Source: a virus (Duplodnaviria; Caudoviricetes). From it: a stretch of DNA of 35,862 bases. The position numbers and the translations under genes were made by a program. The notes below the pieces were generated by a model. That model saw only the letters and a list, made by a program, of their open reading frames with translations. It ran no database searches and had not been told where the DNA came from. Each line of letters starts with the position of its first letter. The stretch's first letter is position 1. The stretch covers positions 1 through 35,862 of IMG/VR virus record IMGVR_UViG_3300020045_003524, one strand, 5' to 3'. Positions 289 through 35,733 of this stretch are shown piece after piece.

Positions 289-316
289 AGTAGACAAAAT
301 TTCTCAATTGTTAACT
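289..316 (-). other. dif-like 28-bp site, L type (module 1)
   Basis: AGTTAACAATT-GAGAAA-TTTTGTCTACT; left arm identical to the sites at 6528 and 32245. Confidence 0.75.
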
Positions 317-690
317 AGTTTGTTTTTAATGGCATTCTTGCTTTCGACTTTAACAATAGAATACGCTTCGTTTCTTTTTTCTCTTGCCATCTGTTTTCCG
401 TGGAATTTAGCTAATCTGATATTAACAGATTGCAGCGTATTTTTGTTAAATTCAATGTCGTGCAACTCGAAAATCGCACGTAGTTTTTTGGATGTTATGT
501 CTTTTTCGAATTTTAAGTCAATGTAATCGGCAATCTCTTTGTACATTTTGACATTTTCATATCTACGGACAGATACGGGGACAATGATTTTTAAATCTTC
601 CAGTTTTTTCATTCTTTCGTAGCCGTGGTTTTCTGGAAGATCAATTTTGTCTAGCTTTTTAAAATATTGTTCGACCGATAATTCTACCAT
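304..690 (-). CDS. Hypothetical protein (128 aa)
   Basis: AAGGAG SD; in the leftward early operon; stop codon lies inside the L site. Confidence 0.85.
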   Translation of the reverse strand: MVELSVEQYFKKLDKIDLPENHGYERMKKLEDLKIIVPVSVRRYENVKMYKEIADYIDLKFEKDITSKKLRAIFELHDIEFNKNTLQSVNIRLAKFHGKQMAREKRNEAYSIVKVESKNAIKNKLVNN

Positions 691-703
691 TTTGCGTTCT
701 CCT

Positions 704-1582
704 TTACTCGGCTTTTATTCCTGTTATTTGTTCGAATTTTAAAGCGTCAAAATTAGGAATAGATTTAATAATATTTTTATCTTTTTCAGAAAGAGAATTC
801 CACCATTTATTATTAACATCAGTTAAATCGATTGTTTTTAAATAACCGCCAGTTGTTTCATGTGTAGTATATTTTCGCTTTTCTTCTTCGCTCATGTCTT
901 CGGAATATATCCATTTAGTAGGAATAAATTCTATTTCAGATAGCAATTTATAAGCCATAGAACTTCTCCACTCGTTAATTGTTAAATCTGATTCAATGTC
1001 AAAAAATCTAATTTTATGCACTTCGGTATTGAAGCAACCAGTTTCGTTATCAGATAAATTAAAATCTCCAGTACATTGATCGCCAGTGTTCCTGTTGCCA
1101 GTGTTCCCGTCGCCAGTGTTCCTGTTGCCAGTGTTCCAGTTGCCAGTGTTCCCGTTGCCAGTGTTCCTGTTGCCAGTGTTCCAGTTGCCAGTGTTCCCGT
1201 TGCCAGTGTTCCAGTTGCCAGTGTTCCTGTCGCCAGTGTTCCAGTTGCCAGTGTTCCCGTTGCCAGTGTTCCCACGACCTGTATTTGATTTTCCTAAATT
1301 GACAATTTTAAGAACTTCTTCCCAGCTTATTTCTCTCAATATTTCAATTTTATTAGTGCTGCTTTTATTTCCTTCTGTGGATATTTCTCCATGAGCAAAA
1401 ATTTCAGCAACTTTATTATTTGGGTCAAAATTATAATACTCAAAACAATCAATTGCTTGTTCGCAATAATGAAATCCTTTGTGGCAAACGCTTGGACTTA
1501 CTTTTTCTTCAAAAGTCTTTCCTACCTCATATTTAAAACCTCTACATGTCCAATCTGCATTAAAAACTTTATAACCTTTCAT
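704..1582 (-). CDS. Pentapeptide-repeat protein with (G/W/R)NTG(N/D) repeats
   Basis: N-terminus KGYKVFNADWTCRGFKYEVG is typical of Firmicutes phage pentapeptide-repeat proteins; 13 tandem NTG units. Confidence 0.85.
   Translation of the reverse strand: MKGYKVFNADWTCRGFKYEVGKTFEEKVSPSVCHKGFHYCEQAIDCFEYYNFDPNNKVAEIFAHGEISTEGNKSSTNKIEILREISWEEVLKIVNLGKSNTGRGNTGNGNTGNWNTGDRNTGNWNTGNGNTGNWNTGNRNTGNGNTGNWNTGNRNTGDGNTGNRNTGDQCTGDFNLSDNETGCFNTEVHKIRFFDIESDLTINEWRSSMAYKLLSEIEFIPTKWIYSEDMSEEEKRKYTTHETTGGYLKTIDLTDVNNKWWNSLSEKDKNIIKSIPNFDALKFEQITGIKAE
1082..1273. repeat. 15-bp tandem repeat, 13 copies
   Basis: Core GCCAGTGTTCC recurs every 15 bp from 1082 to 1262. Confidence 0.95.
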
Positions 1583-1604
1583 ATAATTCTCCTTTTAAAT
1601 TAGT

Positions 1605-1859
1605 TTATAGGTAATTTTTGCCAAATATTTTTAAGAAATCTAAATCAGGATAATGTTCAATAAATTTTCTTTGATAAATTTGCTTTATACAAATATCAAA
1701 ATCTTTATTGTGGTGTATTCCTTGAGAATGGTCTTGGTGGTGATAGTGGCATAAATCAATCTTCATGTTGTATTTTTCGCTTAGCTTTCTATTTGGTCCA
1801 AAGAAAACATGGTGTGTTTCAACCATATTCTCAGAACCACATATTGCACATTTTTTCAT
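1605..1859 (-). CDS. Small Zn/HNH-like nuclease (Ref-like)
   Basis: CxxC...HHVFFG...LCxxHH pattern, near the ERF gene. Confidence 0.65.
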   Translation of the reverse strand: MKKCAICGSENMVETHHVFFGPNRKLSEKYNMKIDLCHYHHQDHSQGIHHNKDFDICIKQIYQRKFIEHYPDLDFLKIFGKNYL

Positions 1860-2209
1860 GTTCGCTTAGCTTGCCCCCAATCTCGTTCTAGCTGGGATTC
1901 AATTAGTCTAAGTTGCAGCTTGATTCCTTGTATCTTCTCGTTCATAACTTCGTATTTCACTTTTGACAAGTCCCTTTGAAGCCTTAATTCTGCTACCGTT
2001 TCGTCGCCATGCGCCAGTGTTTGGCACACGGTCCAAGCGACTTTGTTTTCTTCATGTAGCCTAAAAATTTCTATTTTGTTTGCTATCTTGTAATTGTGTT
2101 CTGCCAAGGCGTAAACTTGTCCTTCTTTCCACAACTCGCCATATGATGCAGAGAGGGATTTACTTAGTGCTTCCCTCTCGTTAAAAAGGTTTATAACGTC
2201 CATTTGCAC
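1856..2209 (-). CDS. Hypothetical helical protein
   Basis: Coupled ORF in the recombination operon; the true start may be the ATG at 2203. Confidence 0.8.
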   Translation of the reverse strand: MQMDVINLFNEREALSKSLSASYGELWKEGQVYALAEHNYKIANKIEIFRLHEENKVAWTVCQTLAHGDETVAELRLQRDLSKVKYEVMNEKIQGIKLQLRLIESQLERDWGQAKRT

Positions 2210-2212
2210 CTC

Positions 2213-2842
2213 TTATTTTTTGTCTGGTAATGTTTCTAGCTTCTTCATAAACTGTTCGTTTTCTACCTGTGTTAAATATTCCATGCCGTGTCCAAACTCT
2301 TTTACAAGACTTTTTTCAACTGCCGCTACACCAAATCCTTTTTTATTTGCCAAAACTATCAATTTGTTTGTATCAACAGTTTCTTTTTTTGACAAAGTGT
2401 TTTGTTTGTCCATTGTTTCTGAATGAGTATTGTCCGTGTCCTCGCCAGAAAACAAGCAAAATGTTTTTTGTAGCAAAGCTTTGTATCCATAAGTTAAAGC
2501 TTTTCCGCTTGCCTTATCTTGTGTATCGCATCCATTGCCAACAGTTGCAAGCAATTCGTGTTCGCCCGTTTCAATGTCTACAATTTTGTAAGTTGCCACT
2601 ATTTGAGACATTAAACGAGTAGTTTCGCCTTTTGCATTGTTGTAAACGTCTTTAATTTCATTGATTTGAACTGATACAGGAAATATAATAAGGCCATGTT
2701 TTTTTAATAATGGCTTAATTAAATTTAAAACAGATGCTTCGCTAATCGCTTTGTATGCATTTGTTCCAAAACCTACGGTCATTGATTTGTCTAGTGCTTC
2801 GCTATCAACCATTACGGCATGCATTTTTTGATATAATCCCAT
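2213..2842 (-). CDS. ERF-superfamily single-strand annealing protein
   Basis: Motif GNGCDTQDKASGKALTYGYKALLQKTFCLFSGEDTD matches the ERF signature. Confidence 0.88.
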   Translation of the reverse strand: MGLYQKMHAVMVDSEALDKSMTVGFGTNAYKAISEASVLNLIKPLLKKHGLIIFPVSVQINEIKDVYNNAKGETTRLMSQIVATYKIVDIETGEHELLATVGNGCDTQDKASGKALTYGYKALLQKTFCLFSGEDTDNTHSETMDKQNTLSKKETVDTNKLIVLANKKGFGVAAVEKSLVKEFGHGMEYLTQVENEQFMKKLETLPDKK

Positions 2843-3904
2843 CTATTTAACCTCCCAATTTAAACCGCTACGATTTAGATAATTTAAAAGAGTTTCTTTG
2901 TCTTGCTTTGTTAACGTAAAAACGACGCTTAAATATTCTAATGGCTCCCATACGATTTCTTTTTCTTCTTCAAATATAATTTCGTCTGCGAATTCTATTT
3001 CTTCTGGAATGGTTTCTAAAACTTCTTGCTTTTTAATTTGAATAGACTCTATTTCTATTTTGCGTTGTTCTTTTAGTTCTTTTTCTTTAATTAATCGCTC
3101 AATGTCTTCTTTTTCTTCTTGTTCTTTCTGAATCTTAAGTCTTATTTCGCGTTCAACTTTTTCTTGCTCTGCTTTTGCTTTTGCAAGAATTGCTTCCTCT
3201 GCTCTTTTTATTGCGGCTTCTTCTGATTCTTTTCTTTTTAATGCCAGTAATGTTATTTGCTCAAGAGTTGTAGCAATGTTCATTGTTTCGTAATTTAAGA
3301 CGAATGGGATATCAGAAATACTTACTGGCGTTGCTAAGTTCGCAAGTTTTGAAGCTGTTTCGATATGATCAGCAACCATTTTGATATTTTGACGCTCTAT
3401 TTCTTGAGCTCTGGTTAATTGAAAAATCTGCGCTTCTAAATCTTCCTTGATTTTTTTCTTTGAAGTGGCTGCGTTTGTATACTCTGATTTCTGAACGTCA
3501 ATTCTGTCTGAATACTTTTCAGTTAACGAGGATAAAGAAACAAGTTCAACTGCTGTCTTTTCAGCGTAATCACGCTTTTCCTGTCTTACCTGTTCATCAA
3601 AGAAATCAATCTTGACCTTCAGTTCGTTTTCAGCTTCTTGTATTGTTTCAATCGCCGCTTTGCAAAGTGCTTCGTATTCCGTAAGGGGAACTATAAACTC
3701 TTTCTTTTGAATCTTGCGTTGATCGTCAATTAGTTTGATACCTCTTGTTAATTCAAGTCGTGATTGTTTCATTTCTTTTAGGTTTTCTTCAGTTACGACA
3801 AGACCTTTGTAATCTTGAATGGCAAGCTTTAATTCGTTGTGAAATTCTTCGAAATTTGTGATTATGGCACCGGGTACCACGTTGATTATTTTTAATTCGT
3901 TCAT
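2843..3904 (-). CDS. DUF1351-like coiled-coil phage protein
   Basis: PGAIITNFEEF...YKGLVVTEENLKEMK...R...KKEF..P...YE pattern; adjacent to the annealing protein. Confidence 0.75.
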   Translation of the reverse strand: MNELKIINVVPGAIITNFEEFHNELKLAIQDYKGLVVTEENLKEMKQSRLELTRGIKLIDDQRKIQKKEFIVPLTEYEALCKAAIETIQEAENELKVKIDFFDEQVRQEKRDYAEKTAVELVSLSSLTEKYSDRIDVQKSEYTNAATSKKKIKEDLEAQIFQLTRAQEIERQNIKMVADHIETASKLANLATPVSISDIPFVLNYETMNIATTLEQITLLALKRKESEEAAIKRAEEAILAKAKAEQEKVEREIRLKIQKEQEEKEDIERLIKEKELKEQRKIEIESIQIKKQEVLETIPEEIEFADEIIFEEEKEIVWEPLEYLSVVFTLTKQDKETLLNYLNRSGLNWEVK

Positions 3905-3915
3905 GTATGTTCTCC

Positions 3916-4188
3916 TTATAGTAAAATGTCAGACAATGCGTCTGCAATTGCCGCTTGAATAGTTTCGTTATCGTTAAAAGATTCATCTATTAACTTTTCT
4001 TTAACTAGTTTATTGGTAACCATTCTGGAAATGTTTTCGACGTCAAATCCTTCTACATTTTTAATTGGATATGGAAGTGTTTCTCCGCTTTCTGAAACTA
4101 CACGACCTTTTCCATCTACAAACAAATCATGTCGCAAGTTGATGTCTAATACCATTTCGCCAATCTCATAAAATTGTTTTGATTTCAT
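3916..4188 (-). CDS. Hypothetical protein
   Basis: AAGGAG SD precedes the ATG at 4188 (MKSKQF...). Confidence 0.75.
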   Translation of the reverse strand: MKSKQFYEIGEMVLDINLRHDLFVDGKGRVVSESGETLPYPIKNVEGFDVENISRMVTNKLVKEKLIDESFNDNETIQAAIADALSDILL

Positions 4189-4378
4189 TTCTGATTCTCC
4201 TTGCGTTATCAATTCTGATTTGTTTAACTCTTAGTGCGCGTTTGCGGTTAATTTGATATCTGTTGACCATCTTGTCAACTACCAAAAAGAAAAACGCCAA
4301 CGCCAGTGGCGCTAAAAAACTGTAGGCAAGCATTAATGCAATATCAATTAGCATTTGTCTTTCGAAATATAGTTCCAT
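4166..4378 (-). CDS. Small membrane protein
   Basis: ATG overlaps the stop of the upstream HTH gene; one hydrophobic helix followed by a basic tail. Confidence 0.7.
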   Translation of the reverse strand: MELYFERQMLIDIALMLAYSFLAPLALAFFFLVVDKMVNRYQINRKRALRVKQIRIDNARRIRNEIKTIL

Positions 4379-4533
4379 TATTTTTTTCCCCTTTCTAACC
4401 ATTCTTTTACTTTCTCAATATCAAAAATCAATTTGCGTCCTGGTGTTATAAAAGGACATCCTTCTTTTGTCCATCTTCGTACTGTTTGCTCAGAAACTTT
4501 AAAATGTTGAGCAACTTCTTTTGTTGTATTCAC
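4378..4533 (-). CDS. Xis/MerR-like winged-HTH DNA-binding protein (51 aa)
   Basis: AAGGAGGTG SD plus GTG; MNTTKEVAQHFKVSEQTVRRWTKEGCPFITPGRKLIFDIEKVKEWLERGKK*. Below the ORF-track size cutoff. Confidence 0.88.
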   Translation of the reverse strand: MNTTKEVAQHFKVSEQTVRRWTKEGCPFITPGRKLIFDIEKVKEWLERGKK

Positions 4534-4562
4534 GTTGTCACCTCCTTGCTATCAATGATTAC

Positions 4563-4591
4563 ATATTATCACATAATATAACATATGTCAA
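4563..4591 (-). promoter_or_regulatory. Leftward sigma-A promoter
   Basis: TTGACA-17 bp-TAATAT directly upstream of the HTH gene SD. Confidence 0.8.
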
Positions 4592-4621
4592 ATTAAAGTT
4601 TATTAATATTGCAAGTTTTTG

Positions 4622-4650
4622 TTTACATATTGGATGATAAGATGTATAAT
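4622..4650 (+). promoter_or_regulatory. Rightward sigma-A promoter (divergent)
   Basis: TTTACA-17 bp-TATAAT upstream of rha. Confidence 0.8.
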
Positions 4651-4716
4651 AAAGAAGTCGACAAATAAACTCACTATCGAATGATTGATTGTGAAATTTA
4701 AGAAAGAAGGTTATAT

Positions 4717-5355
4717 ATGAATGAATTAGTTATTTATAAGAAAAATGAGATTTATGCAGAAAGCCAGCAAGTAGCAAAAGTATTCGAGAAAGACCACAAG
4801 AACGTATTAAGAGACATAAACGATTTAATGGTTAATTGTAGCGAAGAATTTTCACGGCTCAATTATGAGCCATCAACTTATAAGGTTAGAGGAAAAGAGT
4901 ATCCATGCTACCATTTAACAAAAGATGGTTTTACAATGTTGGCAATGGGATACACTGGAGAAAAAGCGATTCAATTTAAAGAGTTGTATATTAAGAAGTT
5001 TAATGAAATGCAAAACTTCATTACAAGCAGAGCGCTGATCAAGTTAGAATTTCCAGCTTTAACAGATAACATTAAAAACAGCCACGAAGAACCGAAGCCA
5101 TATCATTATTCAAACGAACTTAACATGATCAATAAAATTGTATTAGGGATGACAGCGAAACAATTTAAAGAAGCAAATAGCATTGAAGAATCAAAATCTA
5201 TCAGAGAATATTTAACAACGGAACAACTTTCGGATATTATGGAATTGCAAAGAATTGATTCTGGATTCGTTGTTGCTATACCAGATTATCAAGAAAGAAA
5301 AGAAATGCTTAAAAAATATTACAATAAGAAAAAGCTAATGTTAAACAATATATAA
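4717..5355 (+). CDS. rha: Rha-family phage regulatory protein
   Basis: SQQVAKVFEKDHKNVLRDI...YPCYHLTKDGFTMLAMGYTGEKAIQFKELYIKKFNEM is the Rha domain signature. Confidence 0.92.
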   Translation: MNELVIYKKNEIYAESQQVAKVFEKDHKNVLRDINDLMVNCSEEFSRLNYEPSTYKVRGKEYPCYHLTKDGFTMLAMGYTGEKAIQFKELYIKKFNEMQNFITSRALIKLEFPALTDNIKNSHEEPKPYHYSNELNMINKIVLGMTAKQFKEANSIEESKSIREYLTTEQLSDIMELQRIDSGFVVAIPDYQERKEMLKKYYNKKKLMLNNI

Positions 5356-5369
5356 AAAGGAGAAAATAA

Positions 5370-5543
5370 ATGAAGTCAAGTGAATTAGCAAAAGATTTGA
5401 TGAAGTATCCGGGCTTTGAAGTGAATTTTACATTTTGCGACGGATATAGTACTTTTCCAAACTATAGAAAATTTGAAAAAATTAAAGTTCAAGACATTGG
5501 ACATAGCGACAAAATTATTTCGTTAGGTGGAGAAGAAATTTAA
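5370..5543 (+). CDS. Hypothetical protein (57 aa)
   Basis: AAGGAG SD; MKSSELAKDLMKYPGFEV...QDIGHSDKIISLGGEEI*. Confidence 0.75.
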   Translation: MKSSELAKDLMKYPGFEVNFTFCDGYSTFPNYRKFEKIKVQDIGHSDKIISLGGEEI

Positions 5544-5571
5544 AAATAATATTTTATTATAAAAAGGAGCA

Positions 5572-6147
5572 ATGAAAATGATCAATTTAAAATGGCCTAC
5601 AGAATCAAAAAGAGTAACTTGCGAATTTGGACCACGTGACAGAGGGGATAAATTCCACGATGGTTTAGACATTGGAGCTTTTGCTCCAGGTGTAGAAGGC
5701 GACATTGTTAGGGCGATGCACAATGGAACTGTAGTGTATTGTGGGAACCGTGGGGTTTATGGAAATCTTATAGTGATAGATTCTATAGATAAGAAATTTA
5801 GCACGGTTTATGGGCATTTAAAAGAATTTAAAGTTAAGAAAGGAAATAATGTTCTAGCTGGTTATGAAATCGGTCTAATGGGCAACACAGGAGAAAGCAC
5901 AGGGGCGCACCTGCACATAGAATTAAGAACGCAGCCTTATAACGCAACAACGTATTGGAATAGCAAAAACGGAAAATTCTTATCAAGTGTCAATCCGTCA
6001 TTGTTTTTTGAGATTCCACAGTTGACAGATAAAGACATTATACAAAGACATTGCAATTTCAGCGATCCAGAAGCGGTGTTTTCGTTGCTAGAAAAGCATC
6101 CTTATTCAGAGGATTTATTTAAGAAGTGGGCAGATAGTTACAAATAA
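5572..6147 (+). CDS. M23 metallopeptidase, probable endolysin
   Basis: HxxxD (HDGLD), YGN, YGHL and GxTGxSTGAHLHIE motifs; short C-terminal helical extension. Confidence 0.9.
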   Translation: MKMINLKWPTESKRVTCEFGPRDRGDKFHDGLDIGAFAPGVEGDIVRAMHNGTVVYCGNRGVYGNLIVIDSIDKKFSTVYGHLKEFKVKKGNNVLAGYEIGLMGNTGESTGAHLHIELRTQPYNATTYWNSKNGKFLSSVNPSLFFEIPQLTDKDIIQRHCNFSDPEAVFSLLEKHPYSEDLFKKWADSYK

Positions 6148-6178
6148 ATACAAGTACACAGTTAAGGGATGGTGAAAA

Positions 6179-6529
6179 ATGGAAAAATCTTATGAAAAAT
6201 TAAAAGAACAAATAGATGGAATGATATTTGAACAGCTTAAAGATTCTTTGAATATATCGCAAGCGAGCACAACGCAATTAAGCGAATCTATTGACTTTGA
6301 TAAACTACATCAAATTAACCAAATGTTTTTAGAAAAACCGAGATACGCATATATTTTAAGTAACCATATTTCTAAAACAGAAATATTTGTAAGCAACGAA
6401 GATTTAATGCCTTTTGAAAGAAATGGTGTTAAATACAAAATTGTATTTATAAATCCAGCTTGCACGGATGTTATTAAAAAGTTAATTGAAATTGGCGTGA
6501 AAAGCGCAGAAGAAATTGGATTGATATAG
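6179..6529 (+). CDS. Hypothetical protein (116 aa)
   Basis: ORF in the rightward operon; TAG stop overlaps the L site. Confidence 0.75.
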   Translation: MEKSYEKLKEQIDGMIFEQLKDSLNISQASTTQLSESIDFDKLHQINQMFLEKPRYAYILSNHISKTEIFVSNEDLMPFERNGVKYKIVFINPACTDVIKKLIEIGVKSAEEIGLI

Positions 6530-6555
6530 TTAACAATTGAGTAATTTTACGAAGG
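6528..6555 (+). other. dif-like 28-bp site, L type (module 3)
   Basis: AGTTAACAATT-GAGTAA-TTTTACGAAGG. Confidence 0.8.
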
Positions 6556-6573
6556 AAAGGAGAATCAAAAACT

Positions 6574-6786
6574 ATGAGTGAATTTGGTTCAAGAGATTTA
6601 CTTTTAATGTGTAGAAGCAAATTTGAAGTTGAAGAAATGCGCAAATATGTCATAAAAAATAAAAATTCAGATAGGGTAGCTAATGAATATTTTAGCGTTT
6701 TATCTGCAGACTGTTTAAGGTATATTGAAGCACTAGAAAAGGCTGGTATACATCCAAACAATATAGAAAATTTGCAAAATAAATAA
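6574..6786 (+). CDS. Hypothetical protein (70 aa)
   Basis: AAGGAG SD immediately after the L site. Confidence 0.75.
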   Translation: MSEFGSRDLLLMCRSKFEVEEMRKYVIKNKNSDRVANEYFSVLSADCLRYIEALEKAGIHPNNIENLQNK

Positions 6787-6801
6787 AAATTAAAAATCGA
6801 A

Positions 6802-6846
6802 AGGAGTAAAGAGGTTTGGTCGACCAACAAAAGCGCTTTTACTCTT
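6802..6846 (+). promoter_or_regulatory. Structured leader of the methyltransferase gene
   Basis: AGGAGTAAAG can pair with TTTTACTCTT; the element contains the 12-bp palindromes TTGGTCGACCAA (6816-6827) and AAAAGCGCTTTT (6829-6840). Confidence 0.65.
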
Positions 6847-6856
6847 AGTAGAAAGA

Positions 6857-7546
6857 ATGAAAATATTAGTAGCATGTGAGGAATCTCAAGCAGTAACAAA
6901 AGAATTAAGAGCATTAGGCCATGAAGCGTATAGTTGCGATATTGAGCCTTGTAGTGGCGGCCATCCTGAATGGCATGTAATGGATGATGTAGTGCCTTTG
7001 TTGAAACCAGTCGGGAGATTCTTCAAATTAGAAAATGGAGAAGTTATTGGATTTGATAAAAAATGGGACATGATTATCGCTTTTCCACCATGTACATACC
7101 TTACAAACGCAGGAACTAGACATTTTAGCAGAAGAATAAATCCAGAAGAAAAAGTTGTCGCAAGGGAAAAATTAAGAGAAGAAGCATTTGAGTTCTTCAT
7201 GTTATTTGCAAATGCAGATTGTGACAAAATAGCAATTGAAAACCCTGTAGGATATGCAAATGGAATGTATCGCAAGCCTAATCAAATTATTCATCCATAC
7301 TACTTTGGTGACAATGCAAAAAAACGAACATGTCTATGGTTAAAGGGATTGCCAAATCTTACACCTACAAACATGTTGCCTGAACCAGAACCTGAATACA
7401 TATGCCAAGGCGAGTTGTCAAAAGGTAAAAAAATAGGATGGTGCGAAGGTATAAAAGGAACAACAGGCGGTCAAAAAGGTAGAGCGATGGCAAGAAGCAA
7501 AACATTTCCAGGAATAGCAAAAGCAATGGCTACACAGTGGGGATAG
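6857..7546 (+). CDS. Short phage C5-cytosine DNA methyltransferase-like protein
   Basis: Catalytic-like IAFPPCTYL (motif IV) and IAIENPVG (motif VI); N-terminus MKILVACEES; C-terminus RSKTFPGIAKAMATQW. Confidence 0.82.
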   Translation: MKILVACEESQAVTKELRALGHEAYSCDIEPCSGGHPEWHVMDDVVPLLKPVGRFFKLENGEVIGFDKKWDMIIAFPPCTYLTNAGTRHFSRRINPEEKVVAREKLREEAFEFFMLFANADCDKIAIENPVGYANGMYRKPNQIIHPYYFGDNAKKRTCLWLKGLPNLTPTNMLPEPEPEYICQGELSKGKKIGWCEGIKGTTGGQKGRAMARSKTFPGIAKAMATQWG

Positions 7547-7573
7547 GTTCGGAATAGTCTAATTTTGCGAATT
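7546..7573 (+). other. dif-like 28-bp site, R type (module 3)
   Basis: GGTTCGGAATA-GTCTAA-TTTTGCGAATT, beginning at the methyltransferase stop codon. Confidence 0.8.
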
Positions 7574-7580
7574 TAATAAA

Positions 7581-7624
7581 TAAAAACAAAGCCACCTACA
7601 TAATAGTAAGTGGCTTTGTTTTTA
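7581..7624. terminator. Bidirectional intrinsic terminator
   Basis: TAAAAACAAAGCCAC...GTGGCTTTGTTTTTA between convergent operons. Confidence 0.88.
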
Positions 7625-17986: not shown

Positions 17987-18014
17987 TATTCGCAATTGAA
18001 TCCTTTTCCGTAGC
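17987..18014 (+). other. dif-like 28-bp site, L-like (module 4)
   Basis: TATTCGCAATT-GAATCC-TTTTCCGTAGC, 3 bp past the stop of the 44-aa gene. Confidence 0.65.
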
Positions 18015-18928: not shown

Positions 18929-19312
18929 TTAAGTCCTCCTTACAGAGTACCCTGCCCATGTTGTGCCACCGTCAATACTGTCATACGCAAGCCAATAAGA
19001 TTGTCCAGTTGTAAATGAAGGAGTGCCACTTGCGAACGTTGTGCCTGTTGGGTGTGTAATTGCACAAGCTGTCGTACAAACTAAGTCAACCGATACTGTA
19101 ATTAAACTAGCTGACGCATTTTTATTACTAAAAATAATTGACTTTGCATTAGCATCTGCTGACACAATTTTAAAGTTTTTAATTGCTGCATTATTTAGAT
19201 CGATTGTAAAAACATTCGCTGCGTGTGTGACTGTTATTAGGCTCTGAATAGAGGCCATTTGCGAAGCTAATTTTTCACCCTTTAAAAACGCTAAAGTTCC
19301 TAAATCTGACAT
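18929..19312 (-). CDS. Short tail-fibre-tip-like protein
   Basis: ATG at 19312 overlaps the upstream TAA; C-terminus ITHPTGTTFASGTPSFTTG...SIDGGTTWAG resembles fibre tip domains; contains an in-frame dif-like site. Confidence 0.65.
   Translation of the reverse strand: MSDLGTLAFLKGEKLASQMASIQSLITVTHAANVFTIDLNNAAIKNFKIVSADANAKSIIFSNKNASASLITVSVDLVCTTACAITHPTGTTFASGTPSFTTGQSYWLAYDSIDGGTTWAGYSVRRT
19240..19267 (+). other. dif-like 28-bp site, R-like, inside a CDS (module 4)
   Basis: GGCTCTGAATA-GAGGCC-ATTTGCGAAGC; left arm 9/11 to the 7546 site, right arm 9/11 to the 32245 site; encodes ASQMASIQS on the minus strand. Confidence 0.65.
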
Positions 19313-28446: not shown

Positions 28447-28540
28447 GATAGTTATATTATAGCATATTTTTTCAAAAAAATAAAGTCAATATGGTTAGTA
28501 TTGGCTTTACTTTCATAACATTAGAAACGATATAATATAT

Positions 28541-29134: not shown

Positions 29135-29157
29135 AAAATAACACCTCCTATATTAAA

Positions 29158-29187
29158 ATTATAACATAGAAAGTGTTAAAATGTCAA
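29158..29187 (-). promoter_or_regulatory. Consensus sigma-A promoter for the HNH gene
   Basis: TTGACA-18 bp-TATAAT with TGn, followed by AGGAGGTG. Confidence 0.8.
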
Positions 29188-29598: not shown

Positions 29599-29759
29599 CT
29601 TTTCTTCCTCCTGTTTTTGCTTTCCGCGCGACCTATGTTGTTTCTGTGCGCTCGTTTATGCGTGTCTCTGATTTGATAAATGTATGTACGCTGCATACTG
29701 TATTTTACTGCAAAATAAGTTAATATTGCTATTAGTATTGTTATTATTGTGTTTTGCAT
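29595..29759 (-). CDS. Small membrane protein (54 aa)
   Basis: AAGGAG SD; MQNTIITILIAILTYFAVKY...; ATGA overlap with ssb. Confidence 0.65.
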   Translation of the reverse strand: MQNTIITILIAILTYFAVKYSMQRTYIYQIRDTHKRAHRNNIGRAESKNRRKKR

Positions 29760-29777
29760 TTATTCTCCTTTTCAAAA

Positions 29778-29903
29778 TTATTCCTTTCCGCATCCATAAA
29801 CTTCATGCATTGCATCTTTATACCCTTTTTTATACTGTCCAGTTGCGCCAATAGACATTACTACAGCGCCAATTATTAAACCTAAAACAAATGATATAAT
29901 CAT
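29778..29903 (-). CDS. Small membrane protein (41 aa)
   Basis: GAGGAGG SD; MIISFVLGLIIGAVVMSIGATG... Confidence 0.65.
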   Translation of the reverse strand: MIISFVLGLIIGAVVMSIGATGQYKKGYKDAMHEVYGCGKE

Positions 29904-30277
29904 TTTAATTCCTCCTCAGTTGGAAATCTTGCTTCTTTCCAAGTAGACATTGACGACCCTGTCCAGCTCGTGGCACTATTTGACCATGCAAAAATAGTTT
30001 CATTTTCGTATTTTGCAAAATGGCGTTTATACCACTCTGATTTCGAATGTTCTTTAACCATAATTTTTGTATCAACTTCAATTTTTGACCAATCTACAGG
30101 TTCTTCGTATTCTGTAAAATCCATTTTCAAAACGTCATTGTACGCAAGTCCTACATTTGTCCATGTTTTTGTTGAATTAGAAAAGAAAAATAAAAATCCA
30201 TCTTTATCAATTTTCATTTTGTCTTCATATCCCCAAACACTATATTCTTTCCCGACTTCCAACTCTGTAATCTTCAT
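29900..30277 (-). CDS. Phage hypothetical protein
   Basis: PVDWSKIEVDTKIMV...WYKRHFAKYEN motif recognisable from Clostridia phages. Confidence 0.75.
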   Translation of the reverse strand: MKITELEVGKEYSVWGYEDKMKIDKDGFLFFFSNSTKTWTNVGLAYNDVLKMDFTEYEEPVDWSKIEVDTKIMVKEHSKSEWYKRHFAKYENETIFAWSNSATSWTGSSMSTWKEARFPTEEELK

Positions 30278-30414
30278 CTTTTCGCCTTTCTGACTATTCC
30301 AGTCACTCTACGCATCATACACGTAGGACACTCATAATATTTTATGCGTTTCTTGGTTACGCTGATGTTCCAATCCTCGTGACATACATCACAAGTTTTA
30401 TATACCTTCGCCAT
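30274..30414 (-). CDS. Small Zn-ribbon protein (46 aa)
   Basis: GGAGG SD; CDVC...CPTC. Confidence 0.65.
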   Translation of the reverse strand: MAKVYKTCDVCHEDWNISVTKKRIKYYECPTCMMRRVTGIVRKAKR

Positions 30415-30544
30415 CGTCGTCCTCCCAACACTTGTAATATCCGTCGCATTCGCTACATTCTGGATATTCTTTTTCTAGTTGTTCCTTGCAGATCATCCTG
30501 TTTTCGTCTTTAATATCATTCTGAATATCATCCAGCGTTGTCAT
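30398..30544 (-). CDS. Small Cys-containing acidic protein (48 aa)
   Basis: ATGA overlap; MTTLDDIQNDIKDENRMIC...CSECDGYYKCW. Confidence 0.6.
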   Translation of the reverse strand: MTTLDDIQNDIKDENRMICKEQLEKEYPECSECDGYYKCWEDDDGEGI

Positions 30545-30762
30545 GATTCATCACCTCGATATAATCTCAACATATCTTCTCTGCCTTTTAGTCTGGCTTC
30601 GTATACGTCGTTTTGACGCTCTTTTTCTTTAAGGTCTAACAAGTTATCATAATATCCTTTTAAACCGTTTATTTGTGCCTTTAAATAGTTTATACGCATA
30701 TTACAACCAGATAATACCATTGCAAAAACAAACACTACCATCATTAATGCCCATTTATCCAT
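30541..30762 (-). CDS. Small membrane/lipoprotein-like protein
   Basis: Hydrophobic N-terminus ending LSGC. Confidence 0.65.
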   Translation of the reverse strand: MDKWALMMVVFVFAMVLSGCNMRINYLKAQINGLKGYYDNLLDLKEKERQNDVYEARLKGREDMLRLYRGDES

Positions 30763-30776
30763 TTTATCACCTACTT

Positions 30777-31121
30777 CTACATATTCATTTTTATTATTTT
30801 GTTAATGTCATTATCGTACCAATTGCAATTACCATACTTATAATCTTTGCATTCTTTTTTATTATTTGCTGCTCTTTCTATTCCTTTTGAACAATTAACT
30901 TCTATAGTCAAAATAAATTCTCTATCCCCACAGTTGCAAAATCCACCATACGAATAATGTTTTCCGAGAGAATCATCTTCGCATTTTTCGGCAATAAATC
31001 CTTGATTAAATTCACACGAATAACAATTTTTCATAACTGGATCATATTTGCATTTGTGCCTATTTTTTGTTTTAAATATTTGTTGGCAGTATTGACATTG
31101 ATACATTTTGATTTCTTTCAT
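30777..31121 (-). CDS. Cys-rich hypothetical protein
   Basis: YQCQYC...CYSC and further cysteines. Confidence 0.7.
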   Translation of the reverse strand: MKEIKMYQCQYCQQIFKTKNRHKCKYDPVMKNCYSCEFNQGFIAEKCEDDSLGKHYSYGGFCNCGDREFILTIEVNCSKGIERAANNKKECKDYKYGNCNWYDNDINKIIKMNM

Positions 31122-31129
31122 TTTATCAC

Positions 31130-31306
31130 CTATAGCCCCGTCAGAAATTTAAAGTTCTTTGCATTTTCGCACGTTCTTAATATTTCACAATTTAAACACT
31201 GGCTATTGCACTTATGCCAGCAATCAATTCTGTGATCACATTTATAGCATTTATCCAACTTTTCTCCTGTGTTAAACTTGCAAATCTTTCTGTTGTTCTC
31301 TGTCAT
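31130..31306 (-). CDS. Cys-rich small protein (58 aa)
   Basis: AAGGAG SD before the ATG at 31306 (MTENNRKIC...). Confidence 0.6.
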   Translation of the reverse strand: MTENNRKICKFNTGEKLDKCYKCDHRIDCWHKCNSQCLNCEILRTCENAKNFKFLTGL

Positions 31307-31406
31307 AGCAATTCTCCTTACATAGTTCACATGTTTCGGATTTATAAATTTCATTTTCGTCGTGAAACTTCTTGCAGTCGTTTACTCTTTCTTCGTATGT
31401 TTCCAT
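31272..31406 (-). CDS. Small Cys-containing protein (44 aa)
   Basis: SD (AAGGGAG) comes from the R site; METYEERVNDCKK...CELCKENC. Confidence 0.55.
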   Translation of the reverse strand: METYEERVNDCKKFHDENEIYKSETCELCKENCYDREQQKDLQV

Positions 31407-31415
31407 GGTTAACTC

Positions 31416-31443
31416 CCTTCGTAAAATTAGACGTTTCTTTCGT
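31416..31443 (-). other. dif-like 28-bp site, R type with degenerate left arm (module 2)
   Basis: ACGAAAGAAAC-GTCTAA-TTTTACGAAGG; 17 bp identical to the 35706 site. Confidence 0.72.
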
Positions 31444-32234
31444 TAATCATAACAACCACACGGGACGGAATCTTCTTTATCAATCATAAAATCGCATATT
31501 GTCATTTGCGCTTCTTCCCATTTAATCAATTCTTTCCATGAGTAATTTCTGCCTAATCCTTTAACTCTTACCAGGTCTGCTTGTGCTAAATCTTCCATGT
31601 CAACTGCTCTTTGGAATAGATCTGGATGTTTTTTTCTTAAATCTCGTATTTCTTGTTTTTTCATCGAAGGACAAAAAAAGCACGATGATTTACCTGGTAA
31701 CGGAAGTCCTTCTTCTTTGATTATACGAATACAATCTTCGCGATCCCATTCCCATATATCAATCAACGGATACATGTTTTTATATTTCTTGTTGACTATA
31801 TCGAATGCTATAGCATTTGTTTTCCTTCGCTCCTCTCCAGCGTCATATCCAATACTACGAATAACCTTTTCGCCTTTTGCCCATATATCAATACATGGTT
31901 TATAGTTATTGCAGAATTTTTCCTGTACAGACATTTTGTGTTTTTGAGAGCATGTCTTGAATCCATATGCAATTGAGGGAAGTTTTTTGCCATCTAAACA
32001 TTCTTGCTCTAGCGTTAATCTGTTTCCATTTTTATCCGTGTATTTAACCACCGTTATTTCTGGCATATCGTGCGATTCTAACCATTTGTTCATTATTTCT
32101 ATATATTCATATGTTTCGGGCATTTCTCCACCTGTATCAGCAAACAAAATCAAATCAACTGCAAATTTATATCTATGCATTCCGATCAACATTGCAGTGC
32201 TGTTTGTTCCACCGCCAAATGACACTATGTTCAT
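31443..32234 (-). CDS. PAPS-reductase-family (PP-loop, Cys-rich) protein
   Basis: VSFGGGTNS PP-loop, FADTGGE, YPL, SSCFFCP and C-terminal PCGC; SD spacing favours the ATG at 32234. Confidence 0.85.
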   Translation of the reverse strand: MNIVSFGGGTNSTAMLIGMHRYKFAVDLILFADTGGEMPETYEYIEIMNKWLESHDMPEITVVKYTDKNGNRLTLEQECLDGKKLPSIAYGFKTCSQKHKMSVQEKFCNNYKPCIDIWAKGEKVIRSIGYDAGEERRKTNAIAFDIVNKKYKNMYPLIDIWEWDREDCIRIIKEEGLPLPGKSSCFFCPSMKKQEIRDLRKKHPDLFQRAVDMEDLAQADLVRVKGLGRNYSWKELIKWEEAQMTICDFMIDKEDSVPCGCYD

Positions 32235-32244
32235 TCTTTTCACT

Positions 32245-32272
32245 CCTTCGCAATTTTTCTCAATTGTTAACT
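32245..32272 (-). other. dif-like 28-bp site, L type (module 2)
   Basis: AGTTAACAATT-GAGAAA-AATTGCGAAGG with inner dyad CAATT-N6-AATTG. Confidence 0.8.
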
Positions 32273-32510
32273 AACTCCGTATCCCGCTATTAAAATGATT
32301 CCGGCCATATTTCATTGACCCTGTTTTCTGTTGTCGCAAAAACCCCTTGTAAGTCTGCTCTACAAACTTCTCTGCATTTTTAATTTTATTATCTGTATCT
32401 TTGTTTGCTTTCCACGTTAAGAAGTTAGAGCAATCAATGTGGCACATCTCATTTCTCAACATACATCCTTTACCGTTGTTGAAGCACGGACAGTCAGATT
32501 TGTTCATCAA
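32271..32510 (-). CDS. Cys-rich hypothetical protein
   Basis: CPC...C...CHIDC; TAG stop overlaps the L site. Confidence 0.7.
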   Translation of the reverse strand: MMNKSDCPCFNNGKGCMLRNEMCHIDCSNFLTWKANKDTDNKIKNAEKFVEQTYKGFLRQQKTGSMKYGRNHFNSGIRS

Positions 32511-33061
32511 ATACCCCCTGTTAATTTTTTTGTTGTTTCTGATAGTAATTTACTTACATTCTCTTGTCTAATTTGATTTGCTTGCTTGGCTACACTTGGC
32601 GGCAATGCACATTCAATTTTATCTCTGTCAACTTTCGTCTTATAGCTTTCCATGAATCTCGCTCTATCTGCTGCCCTATTATTAATATCAGACACGCATA
32701 GCGAACGCCATCCCATCATTCTTGCTGTTTCGGCAACAATTGGATCCATTTTCGACAGCGCCTGTTCTTCTTTGTCTGCTCCAAATGCTCCAATCTTTCT
32801 TTCTACATCTCCCCAGGCATCTAACGGGTCCATATATTTCTTTCCCGTTAACGGCGTATGGTTTTTTCTAATGTCTGCAATTGTTACTGGAAAGTTACTT
32901 GTCGCTATGTGCGTCATTATAATTGTTTGGCACTCTTTAAAGTCTAAATCTTCAATGCTTTTGCTCCATACGTCCAATCTTACCGCGTTTGATAATATTT
33001 GTAATTGTGGCCATAATTCTTCGACCATGGACAAAACTACTATTGTTTGTTCTCCTGTCAT
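32507..33061 (-). CDS. Replicative helicase loader/inhibitor (G39P-like)
   Basis: DVW...IEDLDF...HIATSNFPVTIADIR; directly after the initiator gene. Confidence 0.72.
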   Translation of the reverse strand: MTGEQTIVVLSMVEELWPQLQILSNAVRLDVWSKSIEDLDFKECQTIIMTHIATSNFPVTIADIRKNHTPLTGKKYMDPLDAWGDVERKIGAFGADKEEQALSKMDPIVAETARMMGWRSLCVSDINNRAADRARFMESYKTKVDRDKIECALPPSVAKQANQIRQENVSKLLSETTKKLTGGI

Positions 33062-33954
33062 AATTCTCCTTTTGAGCGTAGAAAGTCTTGTACTACGCTA
33101 GATTGTATTTTGCTTGCTATTCTTTCTTTTGAACTCATTTCTTGAGTTATCCTTACCGGTTGTTTTGCTTTAATCATAAGTTGATCAAATTGTTTTCTTA
33201 GTTTATCTGTTGATAATATATTTCCCTGCCAAAAAGTGTCACTTGTTGCAAAGTCAATTACAAGTCTAATATCATTCAGCGACCTGTTATCTATGCGAAT
33301 CATTTTATCAACATGAGTTGCCCATGATTGCATATTGGGTTGTTTGAAATTCTCGTTGTTGTTTTTGATTTTCAAAAGAAGATATTCAGAAATAGATATT
33401 TCATCCGAATCGTCGGAAAACTTGTTTTTCTCGACAGAGATATTTTTTTCTTTCTTTTGCTTTATCTCTTTATCTAAGTCTAACTCTATATCTAGTTCTT
33501 TCTCTATATCTATCTCTATATCTGTGTTACATTTTTGTACATTCTCGTTACAATTCGTTACACTGGCGTTACATTGTAACAACTTTATTGATTCTCTGTG
33601 TTTTCTAACCCTTTCAGCCGACTCTGTTTCGCTACCAAGATTATTAAAAGTATCAGTAAGAATCAACTGTTTATCGTTTACCATTTCAATAAATCCGCAT
33701 TTTTCCAAAAACGATAAAGTTATTGAAACATTGTCAGGATCCTCATCTATTTCTAGCGCTATTTCTTCAGCAAAAGAATCATCAATACCATCAAAAAATA
33801 ATTTACCTTCGTTTCTAAGGCTCAGCAATTGCATTTTTAAATATATAATAGTGAATGTATCACCACCAGCAATTTTGCGAAGCTTCTTCATTTCTTTTTG
33901 GTTAAAAAAATCCTCTTTAAGTTTTAGCCAGTAGTATTTTTTTGATTCTGCCAT
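33058..33954 (-). CDS. Phage replisome organizer / replication initiator
   Basis: YYWLKLKEDFF...GDTFTIIYLKMQLLS...GSETESAERVRKHRE N-terminal domain; C-terminal FWQGNILSTDKLRKQFDQL. Confidence 0.9.
   Translation of the reverse strand: MAESKKYYWLKLKEDFFNQKEMKKLRKIAGGDTFTIIYLKMQLLSLRNEGKLFFDGIDDSFAEEIALEIDEDPDNVSITLSFLEKCGFIEMVNDKQLILTDTFNNLGSETESAERVRKHRESIKLLQCNASVTNCNENVQKCNTDIEIDIEKELDIELDLDKEIKQKKEKNISVEKNKFSDDSDEISISEYLLLKIKNNNENFKQPNMQSWATHVDKMIRIDNRSLNDIRLVIDFATSDTFWQGNILSTDKLRKQFDQLMIKAKQPVRITQEMSSKERIASKIQSSVVQDFLRSKGEL
33526..33580. repeat. Iteron-like GTTACA repeats; probable replication origin
   Basis: GTTACA at 33526, 33547, 33557 and 33568, GTACA at 33537, inverted TGTAAC at 33575; about 10-11 bp period inside the initiator gene. 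Confidence 0.7.
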
Positions 33955-33965
33955 TTATTCACCTT

Positions 33966-34130
33966 CTAGTAATGTATTTCAACAACTGAATGATTTAATT
34001 TGCAAATATCAAGAAGTTGTTTAAGTTGTGAATCGTCAGTTATTTTAAACGAAGATCCATTGTTATTTTCCATTTGTTCAAAGCTATCAAAAACAAAAAC
34101 ATTGATGCAATTAGAAATCTCATTTTCCAT
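33966..34130 (-). CDS. Hypothetical protein (54 aa)
   Basis: Starts right after the HTH stop; MENEISNCINVFVFDSF... Confidence 0.6.
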   Translation of the reverse strand: MENEISNCINVFVFDSFEQMENNNGSSFKITDDSQLKQLLDICKLNHSVVEIHY

Positions 34131-34301
34131 TTATTGTTCCCCTTTCGCCTTTAACCATTCATTAACTTCTGATTCTGAAAAACGAATTGCCCTATCAATT
34201 TTTATACAAGGCATTCCTTTTTTGTCTATCCAAGCTTTCAATGTTTGTCTGCTAACTTGTAGTTTTTGACACATTTGAGCAATTGTTATTAATGTTTCCA
34301 T
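34131..34301 (-). CDS. Second Xis/MerR-like winged-HTH protein (56 aa)
   Basis: AAGGAGGTG SD; METLITIAQMCQKLQVSRQTLKAWIDKKGMPCIKIDRAIRFSESEVNEWLKAKGEQ*. Confidence 0.88.
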   Translation of the reverse strand: METLITIAQMCQKLQVSRQTLKAWIDKKGMPCIKIDRAIRFSESEVNEWLKAKGEQ

Positions 34302-34322
34302 TTGTTCACCTCCTTGAATACG

Positions 34323-34351
34323 ATATTACAACACTTAACGTTATTTGTCAA
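34323..34351 (-). promoter_or_regulatory. Sigma-A promoter of the replication operon
   Basis: TTGACA-17 bp-TAATAT, the same hexamers as the 4563-4591 promoter. Confidence 0.8.
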
Positions 34352-34379
34352 CAACATTGGTTAATATTTATTTTTAAAC

Positions 34380-34405
34380 AAAAAAAGAAGCGGTTGCCCA
34401 CTTCT
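34380..34405 (-). terminator. Intrinsic terminator after dUTPase
   Basis: AGAAGTGG-GCAA-CCGCTTCT followed by a T run. Confidence 0.88.
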
Positions 34406-34413
34406 AATTTTTA

Positions 34414-34887
34414 CTATTTTCCACTACTTCCCAGCTTGCCAGTTCCCCTATCGCTTTCGATTAACATTAGATCAGTAAAACTTAATTCCACAGATGCCAA
34501 ATCGTGCGACCTGTGAATAATCGCTTGGCAAATTGCTTTTTGCATTGGGTAATCACCGTTAAAATCATCAGCAAATACGAAATCTTTATCATTGTGGTTG
34601 GTGATAGCGATAAATATTTCGCCACGATAACCGCTATCTATTACACCGCAACGGATGCCAATTCCTTTGCTTCCCAGACTGCCACGTTCTTTTATTTCTA
34701 GCCAGTAATCCACTGGAAGTGCCACGAATAAACCTGTTGAAATCATGTTTGTAAAATGCGGTGGGATGATTAACTTTCCGCACTTAAAATCTCCATAAAT
34801 ATCAAAGCCTGCGTTTTCTCGTACCTTTTCAGGCATTTTAATTCCAGGATGTTTTCTTGCCCATGCTATGGTATCTTTAATTGTCAT
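34414..34887 (-). CDS. dut: Trimeric dUTPase
   Basis: AGFDI, RGSLG, GVIDSGYRGE and RGTGKLGSSG motifs. Confidence 0.95.
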   Translation of the reverse strand: MTIKDTIAWARKHPGIKMPEKVRENAGFDIYGDFKCGKLIIPPHFTNMISTGLFVALPVDYWLEIKERGSLGSKGIGIRCGVIDSGYRGEIFIAITNHNDKDFVFADDFNGDYPMQKAICQAIIHRSHDLASVELSFTDLMLIESDRGTGKLGSSGK

Positions 34888-35320
34888 GCTTTAACTCCTT
34901 CATCAGTTTAGTTTTCTTTTCTGCCAGTTGTTCAGGTGTGTTGTTTTCAATTTGGTTTGCTACTTCTTCGACGTACTTAATGCATCGTTTAAATCCGTAC
35001 CCGTGAAGCTTATTTAAAGCAACAACGGACGCATTAATATAATTCTCTGTTATATGTAGTTCTGAAGCATTTAAAGCACGTTTAAAAGTAGTTTCATTAT
35101 ACTTTTGATTACTTGCTTCAATGTCAAAGTTCAAAGCTTCTATGCACTCTTTAATTGCGTTTTTAAAAATAGGGTTGTCTAGTTCGATTTGTATTAATTT
35201 TAAAATATCAATTGCATCTTGATGTTCAGCTTGATCAAGTATATCAAGTTTGTTTTCTGAGTTTTTCTTAGTTTTAAGTTCAAGAGTTTTCGTTTTTAGT
35301 TTCTGTTCAAATAATTTCAT
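34877..35320 (-). CDS. Hypothetical protein (147 aa)
   Basis: GGAGG SD; coupled between rusA and dut. Confidence 0.75.
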   Translation of the reverse strand: MKLFEQKLKTKTLELKTKKNSENKLDILDQAEHQDAIDILKLIQIELDNPIFKNAIKECIEALNFDIEASNQKYNETTFKRALNASELHITENYINASVVALNKLHGYGFKRCIKYVEEVANQIENNTPEQLAEKKTKLMKELKHDN

Positions 35321-35699
35321 TTGTAACCTCCGTTATTTCTATTTCTGTTCTAGGGCATTCTTTGTCGTATCTTACACGACTTCCATCCATAGATACTACT
35401 ATTTTGCTGTTATCATCTTCCAGTATTCCGCACTTGACTAATGTGTCATTTATAGCGCTTAGAAGGTTGGTTAAATCGACTTTGCGTCTAGTTTGCATAT
35501 AGAATACACATTTTAAATTAATAGGCTTATTTATGGGTTCTAAGAGTTTTAAATGTTTAGTCAGATTTATGCAATCTTTTTCATACTGGCAATACTGCTT
35601 GCTAGGTAATAGGGCTGTTTTAGCCCCATACCTAACAATTCTGCTAGAGTTCTTTTTGGTTATTGGATTTAAAGGTATTATAAAGCTATATAATATCAT
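35307..35699 (-). CDS. rusA: RusA-family Holliday junction resolvase
   Basis: RRKVDLTNL..AINDTL...GILEDDN...PRTEIEI; SD GAAGGAG from the R site favours the ATG at 35699. Confidence 0.88.
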   Translation of the reverse strand: MILYSFIIPLNPITKKNSSRIVRYGAKTALLPSKQYCQYEKDCINLTKHLKLLEPINKPINLKCVFYMQTRRKVDLTNLLSAINDTLVKCGILEDDNSKIVVSMDGSRVRYDKECPRTEIEITEVTNEII

Positions 35700-35705
35700 G
35701 ATTCT

Positions 35706-35733
35706 CCTTCGTAAAATTAGACTATATCGAATC
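35706..35733 (-). other. dif-like 28-bp site, R type (module 1)
   Basis: GATTCGATATA-GTCTAA-TTTTACGAAGG; contains the TAG stop of the origin-spanning gene. Confidence 0.8.

Follow-up and report, generated by a model that had tools for sequence, protein, structure and literature searches.

How accessory genes are gained and lost in tightly packed phage operons is debated, with linker-guided homologous exchange set against illegitimate recombination combined with selection. A 35,862-base stretch of tailed-phage DNA (Caudoviricetes; IMG/VR record IMGVR_UViG_3300020045_003524), which we call the window, poses this question in a concrete form: what are the related sites of about 28 nucleotides (nt) that bracket several of its accessory genes? 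An earlier note on this sequence had described eight such sites in four pairs and read them as 11-6-11 targets, akin to the pdif sites of Acinetobacter plasmids, at which a host or helper tyrosine recombinase would exchange cassettes. The answer that we favor, tentatively and at a little less than an even chance, is that six of the sites are conserved intercistronic stop-and-restart junctions, and that they mark joints at which cargo was exchanged by homologous recombination.

All eight of the previously quoted strings are present where they had been placed, and six of them, three left (L) and three right (R) sites, form a real, non-random repeat family, as judged by repeat pairing and simulated genomes. 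Positions 6527-6556 pair with 32244-32273 (30 nt, 87% identity), 296-317 with 6527-6548 (22 nt, 95%), and 7548-7571 with 35708-35731 (24 nt, 88%). Two exact cores are shared. Alpha, TAGTTAACAATTGAG, is the sole 15-mer with three copies (plus-strand starts 303, 6527, and 32259), and beta is a 14-mer, TAATTTTACGAAGG, with exactly three copies (6542, 31416, and 35706). With a tandem repeat at 1030-1330 masked, three 14-mer families have three copies in this genome, namely alpha, beta, and a purine run in coding sequence; 200 genomes simulated under a first-order Markov model gave a mean of 0.075 such families and a maximum of 1. At least three matches to beta were obtained in 0 of 100 shuffles, and at least three matches to the alpha 14-mer, with up to two mismatches, in 5 of 100.

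Three of the four pairs described earlier are thus real, while the fourth (17987..18014 and 19240..19267) is at chance level and was rejected. Against the best true site, each of its members scores 18 of 28, and simulated genomes contain an average of 23 such windows (maximum 37, n = 100). The second member lies antisense within an open reading frame (ORF) at 18929-19342. A 13-nt match of ATTCGATATAGTC within the PAPS-reductase gene (31791-31805) was also judged to be due to chance.

What is observed at the six sites concerns their position, their sense, the use of their stop codons in two frames, their role as Shine-Dalgarno (SD) sequences, and a split between identical outer and variable inner halves. 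All six lie on the coding strand and occupy the gap between the stop codon of one gene and the SD of the next, except that one of them (s5) has no downstream gene. These junctions are 22 to 44 nt long, versus 14 nt or less for most within-operon junctions. L sites consist of alpha and a beta-like leader. Site s1 (289..316, minus strand) has alpha, completed by the T at 317, then AAATTTTGTCTACT, which leads into AAGGAGG and the GTG start of its cargo gene; a 128-amino-acid (aa) ORF upstream terminates at the TGA within alpha. In s2 (6528..6555, plus strand), alpha is joined to an exact beta, and a second SD, AAAGGAG, then precedes the ATG of a 70-aa ORF. Site s3 (32245..32272, minus strand) has alpha followed by AAAAATTGCGAAGG(AG) and then the ATG of a gene for a PAPS-reductase-like protein. 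At both s2 and s3, the ORF upstream (116 and 79 aa, respectively) terminates at the opening TAG of alpha, which in s2 occupies 6527-6529.

R sites consist of a variable left part, GTC, and beta. Site s4 (35706..35733, minus strand) joins GATTCGATATAGTC to an exact beta, and AAGGAG plus 4 nt lead to the ATG of the RusA gene at 35699. Site s6 (31416..31443, minus strand) starts on the last base of the PAPS-reductase stop codon and reads ACGAAAGAAAC, then GTC and an exact beta; GGGAG plus 6 nt lead to the ATG of a 44-aa ORF (31272-31406). Site s5 (7546..7573, plus strand) starts on the last base of a methyltransferase stop codon and reads GGTTCGGAATAGTC, then TAATTTTGCGAATT. Its SD lacks the AGG and reads GCGAATT.

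Within 14 nt, alpha presents TAG, TAA, and TGA, one per reading frame, and such three-frame stops are found in 0.08% of the 14-nt windows in this genome. Two of these frames are used by upstream ORFs, the TAG by two and the TGA by one. RusA, the 44-aa ORF, and the PAPS-reductase-like gene have the GAAGG(AG) of beta as their SD. Across loci, the outer halves are identical: alpha agrees at 15 of 15 positions in its three copies, and GTC plus beta agrees at 17 of 17 between s4 and s6. The cargo-side halves vary, with 7, 4, and 7 differences in the 14 positions after alpha in the three pairwise comparisons, and with 1 of 11 positions identical between s4 and s6 to the left of GTC.

The sites have neither a stable RNA structure nor a promoter of their own on the sense strand. 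Folding gave z-scores from -1.14 to +0.65 for five of the six site stretches. The remaining stretch, at s5, gave a z-score of -5.04, and its signal comes from the adjoining bidirectional terminator, a 19-pair hairpin at 7581..7624 that directly follows the site. An RNA hairpin, a riboswitch, or a known RNA family at the sites was rejected on the basis of the near-zero fold z-scores and the lack of an Rfam match. No sigma-70-like promoter was found on the sense strand at any of the six sites. Two weak sigma-70 matches (9 of 12) fall on the antisense strand of s3 and s6, and overall such matches are as frequent as expected from shuffles.

At each of the three locations, one or two unrelated genes lie between an L site on their upstream side and an R site on their downstream side, all on the same strand. 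We therefore retain from the earlier description three accessory-gene sets that are bracketed by conserved sites of about 28 nt, of two kinds. Cargo A (6574..7546, plus strand) comprises the 70-aa ORF (6574-6786) and a DNA methyltransferase (6857-7546; phrog_757, E 6.6e-60). Cargo B (31443..32231, minus strand) is the PAPS-reductase-like gene (phrog_424, E 3.8e-41; Pfam PF01507). The first and last 121 bases of the window are identical (1-121 = 35742-35862), which leaves a unit of 35,741 bp; therefore, the sites at 289 and 35706 flank a single 97-aa gene (phrog_13561), cargo C. This gene lies on the minus strand, with its 5' part at 1..274 (GTG start at 274) and its 3' end, reached across the circular junction, at 35722..35741, where its stop codon is the TAG of ATAGTC in s4 (35724-35722). 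The 121-bp terminal overlap sits within this gene.

Two of the three cargo sets are DNA-modification-type genes. In another IMG/VR phage (locus L168, 3752-5248), a PAPS-reductase homolog is directly followed by a methyltransferase homolog (42% identity to that of the window), and this adjacency of genes that occupy separate cassettes here hints at a shared DNA-modification function. The GC content of the cargo genes, overall and at third codon positions (GC3), is that of their neighbors, and a foreign composition of the cargo was accordingly rejected. The methyltransferase has its own 60-nt leader (6794-6856), which is ~90% identical to the corresponding leader in Clostridium scindens phage phiCs5676-1; the coding part, at ~80% identity, is below its leader. 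Similarity between the window and phiCs5676-1 is bounded by this leader and the gene, not by alpha or beta. The leader also carries a perfect 12-bp palindrome, TTGGTCGACCAA, at 6816-6827, possibly an operator or a structured element controlling methyltransferases of this family. Downstream of s6, the 44-aa ORF, which is cysteine-rich, overlaps a 74-aa ORF (31130-31354) by 83 nt in a different frame; the two could be one frameshifted gene or two overlapping genes.

If the six sites are joints of homologous exchange, as we tentatively suggest, then their shared outer sequences would serve as portable linkers, and a gene lying between alpha and beta could replace another. Exchange would take place between related phages by homologous recombination, with the phage's own Erf and RusA as the probable agents. 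Given the stops and the restart signal that the linker carries, an insertion would leave the translation of its neighbors undisturbed. Several findings agree with this reading. Non-homologous genes have identical short sequences at their boundaries (alpha at 15 of 15 and beta at 14 of 14 positions, in three copies each, with unrelated flanks), and a recombination function is at hand, since the phage encodes both an Erf-family single-strand annealing protein (2213..2842, minus strand; PF04404, E 5.5e-14) and a RusA-type Holliday-junction resolvase (35307..35699, minus strand; PF05866, E 1.7e-9), the latter being the gene that the beta leader of s4 serves. Erf-type recombinases are described as promoting mosaic formation in the relevant part of PMC3945230. 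In addition, s5 has the motif without a gene behind it and has lost its AGG, which fits a junction that travelled with its cargo.

Other findings weigh against an exchange of this kind. The same part of PMC3945230 gives a minimal efficient pairing segment of 23 to 27 bp for Red-beta and of 31 to 34 bp for RecA. The exact tracts shared here are 14 to 17 nt, or 22 to 30 nt with mismatches, and are thus below or near these minima; by this measure the homology is too short for efficient pairing, with a longest imperfect match of 30 nt (87%). No close relative was found in IMG/VR, JGI metagenomes, species genomes, GenBank phages, or plasmids, and hence no breakpoint was mapped. Nothing in the GC or GC3 of the cargo, which is like that of its neighbors, points to recent import. 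The perfect identity of alpha in three copies could instead reflect binding of a sequence-specific factor. Finally, the exchange of the methyltransferase did not use alpha or beta, because it is the gene's own leader that is shared with phiCs5676-1.

The search for relatives, which recovered neither the motif in this context nor the early genes, covered collections from which the closest records may be missing. Megablast of positions 1-12000 and 24000-35862 returned no match among GenBank phages, and none among plasmids. Within IMG/VR, the 292-aa ORF of the window led to 78 loci at up to 58% identity, which contain 0 alpha or beta cores, and the large terminase subunit (TerL) led to 12 loci at 53 to 63% identity, in which the motif is absent and the early genes are not in common. 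The replisome organizer yielded one partial IMG/VR locus, and cargo C and a 353-aa ORF yielded none there; the latter also had no match in a collection of 185,579 species genomes (one genome per species). The 128-aa and 116-aa ORFs upstream of s1 and s2 had no tblastn match among phages, and in a large protein set the 128-aa ORF was matched by itself only. As for the motif itself, the alpha 15-mer occurs at 33 IMG/VR loci and the R 17-mer at 4, none of them in the same context, while the alpha-beta pattern has 3 unrelated matches in JGI metagenome contigs and 0 exact matches in the 185,579 species genomes. That the motif is borne by the cargo was rejected as well: the PAPS-reductase homologs (21 inspected of 48 loci) are from high-GC phages with tight junctions and no motif.

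One TerL relative does contain repeated leaders of its own. In the phage IMGVR_UViG_3300033388_002017, whose TerL is 56-57% identical to that of the window, the leader AAAGATAGAGG occurs in nine copies on the minus strand (4364, 4507, 4623, 9380, 9597, 10106, 10315, 37097, and 37471), of which eight contain GAAAGATAGAGG. An ATG lies within 16 nt in all nine cases, 4 to 12 nt after the leader; TAA and a run of A/T precede most copies, and the ORFs that follow range from 35 to 165 aa. This leader is a lineage-specific extended ribosome-binding or junction motif. Thus, stop-plus-SD leaders before small early genes recur in this phage group without dif-like geometry.

Could the sites instead be targets of a recombinase? 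As originally proposed, the 28-mers would be 11-6-11 core sites for a host (Xer-like) or helper tyrosine recombinase, and cassettes would enter or be swapped within the central 6 bp. We regard this as very unlikely. Xer sites, as PMC5357621 describes them in the part that deals with their layout, have two 11-bp arms with partial dyad symmetry around a 6-bp center. We took the six sites in Table 1 of PMC13141974 as the pdif reference. Against it, s1 to s6 score 13, 16, 13, 13, 15, and 14 of 22, with composition-matched shuffle P values of 0.042, 0.0002, 0.018, 0.024, 0.0008, and 0.003, respectively, which are not independent since halves are shared between sites. The earlier report of a 15-of-22 match at 6528 is correct, and the match rises to 16 of 22 with the best pdif variant; however, 66 of the 71,482 windows in the genome reach at least 15, and 17 reach at least 16 (simulation means, 54 and 10). 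Among control junctions, that is, the upstream regions of the other 51 genes in the best of 17 frames, 18 score at least 13, two score at least 14, one scores 15, and none scores 16. The site at 6528 stands out in pdif score, then, above all 51 other gene junctions, and the scores at 7546 and 31416 are also low in P value, but a score of 13 is ordinary; as a whole, the five sites other than 6528 are ordinary. Further points that would suit a recombinase are a 9-of-11 match between the reverse complement of beta and the XerC arm, and dyad matches of 7, 4, 7, 6, 7, and 4 of 11 in s1 to s6 (genome mean 2.9; at least 7 in 1.1% of windows), although a best-frame score of at least 6 is found at 29 of the 51 control junctions. 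The dyad center coincides with the one previously assigned in four of the six sites, and the switch from conserved to variable sequence falls in or beside the assigned 6-bp center. It is also true, as the earlier note had stated, that the phage has no recombinase of its own: neither a tyrosine nor a serine recombinase was found among the 57 ORFs that we scanned against PHROGs or the 52 that we scanned against Pfam, so the activity would have to be supplied by the host. Against all of this stand the orientation and the arms. In the passages of PMC13141974 on dif modules, the flanking pdif sites are inversely oriented, and one change at an inner XerD-arm position is described as probably inactivating. 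Here, L and R are direct in all three pairs, and three of the four inner XerD-arm positions differ, the L sites reading AATT where pdif reads TTAT. Sites s1 and s6 have one recognizable arm each (5 of 11 and 1 of 11 positions identical to their counterparts), and of the three cassette-circle sites that would be predicted, just one has two arms (dyad 7, 3, and 3). Moreover, the replication genes are flanked by direct repeats with identical centers, both s1 with s3 and s4 with s6, and would be lost if a recombinase acted on these sites. Each site also contains stops and an SD. For a streptococcal host, which the nearest named phages suggest, the XerS site would have an 11-bp center (PMC5357621, in its account of streptococci). 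A combined explanation, which we consider highly improbable, holds that the 28-mers are host Xer-like recombination targets that double as three-frame stop and ribosome-binding signals, which would make every insertion translationally non-polar. Were it true, it would amount to an integron-like cassette system in a Firmicutes-type phage, with a recombinase-less phage trading promoterless cassettes.

Two further explanations dispense with exchange at the sites as their function. The motifs may be cis-regulatory RNA or DNA sites that co-regulate accessory genes, for example through a translational repressor or an RNA-processing enzyme, and that are conserved by this function. It would explain why alpha is unchanged in three copies beside positions that vary, why every site is sense-oriented in a 5' leader, and why the partial dyad has one common center; the nine-copy leader of the TerL relative precedes small early ORFs, and the window encodes two small HTH_17 proteins. 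We nevertheless find it unlikely, as s5 has no gene to regulate, the site folds show no stable RNA structure, dyads of at least 6 occur in the best frame at 29 of 51 ordinary junctions, and no candidate factor was identified. Alternatively, the repeats are functionless relics of old duplications or illegitimate recombination, kept only insofar as they form part of a stop codon or an SD. The exact cores do occur in just three copies each, the motif is found in no other record (the 33 and 4 IMG/VR loci and the 3 metagenome matches are all unrelated, and the species genomes have none), the cargo is composed like the rest of the genome, and a beta-like sequence, TAATTTTGAAAAGGAG, is present at an ordinary junction (29765-29780). 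Neutral decay, however, would not leave all 15 alpha positions unchanged in three copies beside a stretch in which 4 to 7 of 14 positions differ; the repeats consistently bracket accessory genes, and three-frame stops within 14 nt are rare. A purely relic origin is therefore doubtful, and stop-and-restart junctions at joints of homologous exchange remain the reading that we prefer.

The rest of the genome has a tailed-phage layout according to the PHROG and Pfam scans. The structural and lysis set includes terminase, portal, major head protein, a 1,523-aa internal-virion-like protein, an M23 peptidase, and holins, and the early region encodes, with Erf and RusA, an SSB, a dUTPase, a DnaD-like replisome organizer, Rha, and the two HTH_17 proteins. 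The minus strand carries most genes, and an operon on the plus strand (4717-7546) closes at the bidirectional terminator. IMG/VR classes the record as having direct terminal repeats, and its completeness was estimated by CheckV at 54%. The GC content of the window is 35%. Its major head protein is 49% identical to that of Dulem virus 31 and 42-43% identical to those of Streptococcus prophages, which are the nearest named phages and are distant, and its replisome organizer has short DNA matches in Clostridium, Streptococcus, and Butyrivibrio phages. Because these are the nearest named phages, we infer that the host is a low-GC Gram-positive bacterium.

Several other features were observed. Three overlapping copies of a TCTMTATCT-type repeat at 33467-33523, within the replisome-organizer gene, are probably origin iterons. 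The 292-aa ORF (704-1582) contains 14 tandem copies of a 15-nt unit at 1037-1321, which encode pentapeptide repeats (Pfam Pentapeptide_2) behind a DUF7666 domain; its gene family is common in IMG/VR (83 relatives). There are three long non-coding gaps, 28268-28540 (273 nt), 30278-30540 (263 nt), and 17942-18153 (212 nt), the first of which has several promoter-like matches. A perfect 12-of-12 sigma-70 match lies in the region upstream of an HNH gene, at 29158-29187.

In this genome, three unrelated cargo sets are each framed by copies of a single 15-nt three-frame stop block and a single SD leader. This provides a compact, testable example for the debate over how accessory genes come and go in packed operons. 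If relatives turn out to carry different cargo in the alpha-to-beta slots, they would provide a clean natural example, outside the T4 group, of cassette exchange that is linker-mediated and translationally non-polar. Linker exchange, if true, would also suggest a straightforward rule for adding genes to phage operons by design. Should the sites be host recombinase targets instead, they would define a new kind of cassette system.

The closest precedent for the reading we favor is found in lambdoid phages, for which it is an established proposal that mosaic joints lie at short conserved boundary sequences (PMC3029335, citing its references 21 and 22). As in that proposal, to the extent that the cited passage sets it out, the sequences discussed here are short, lie at gene boundaries, are common to otherwise unrelated neighbors, and would be substrates of homologous recombination for module swaps. 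They differ from what the passage describes in occurring three times within one genome, in combining a three-frame stop block with an SD leader, and in having exact cores of 14 to 17 nt. Our reading is drawn from one genome and three cassettes; with that scope, the sites would be conserved boundary sequences at mosaic joints in a new form.

Among cassette-like arrangements, the PeSL cassettes of T4-type phages are similar in that repeated intergenic motifs flank non-essential genes and include an upstream stop and a downstream SD (PMC2839356). The same account credits PeSLs with modular shuffling and gives them a strong sigma-70 promoter and a terminator stem-loop, about 50 copies per genome, and demonstrated mini-circles (PMC2839356). 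The sites in the window, in contrast, have no sense-strand promoter match and no stem-loop, and number only six copies. The pdif modules of Acinetobacter plasmids share with them the 28-bp length, a possible 11-6-11 geometry, the bracketing of accessory genes, and the lack of a recombinase on the element, whereas the direct orientation and the loss of the invariant inner ATAA/TTAT set our sites apart (PMC13141974, as far as its treatment of site structure goes). One site here does match the pdif arms at 16 of 22 positions, but all six overlap translation signals and always follow gene orientation.

Integron cassettes, which recombine at attI and attC sites, carry promoterless, co-oriented cargo, and their sites have conserved resident-side halves and variable cassette-side halves. 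The same division into halves is seen at our sites, whose cargo is again promoterless and co-oriented; however, no IntI integrase is present among the scanned ORFs, there is no long folded hairpin of the attC type, and the cassettes occupy three scattered loci rather than one array. Searches of the open-access literature turned up no account of natural junction cassettes with three-frame stops in phages. An engineered counterpart exists in non-polar resistance cassettes of the aphA-3 type, which open with three-frame stops at the 5' end and close with a ribosome-binding site at the 3' end, a layout that keeps the downstream gene translated. The junctions described here have the same order of signals, with stops 5' and a ribosome-binding site 3'; the arrangement that is man-made there is natural here, and its non-polarity is predicted.

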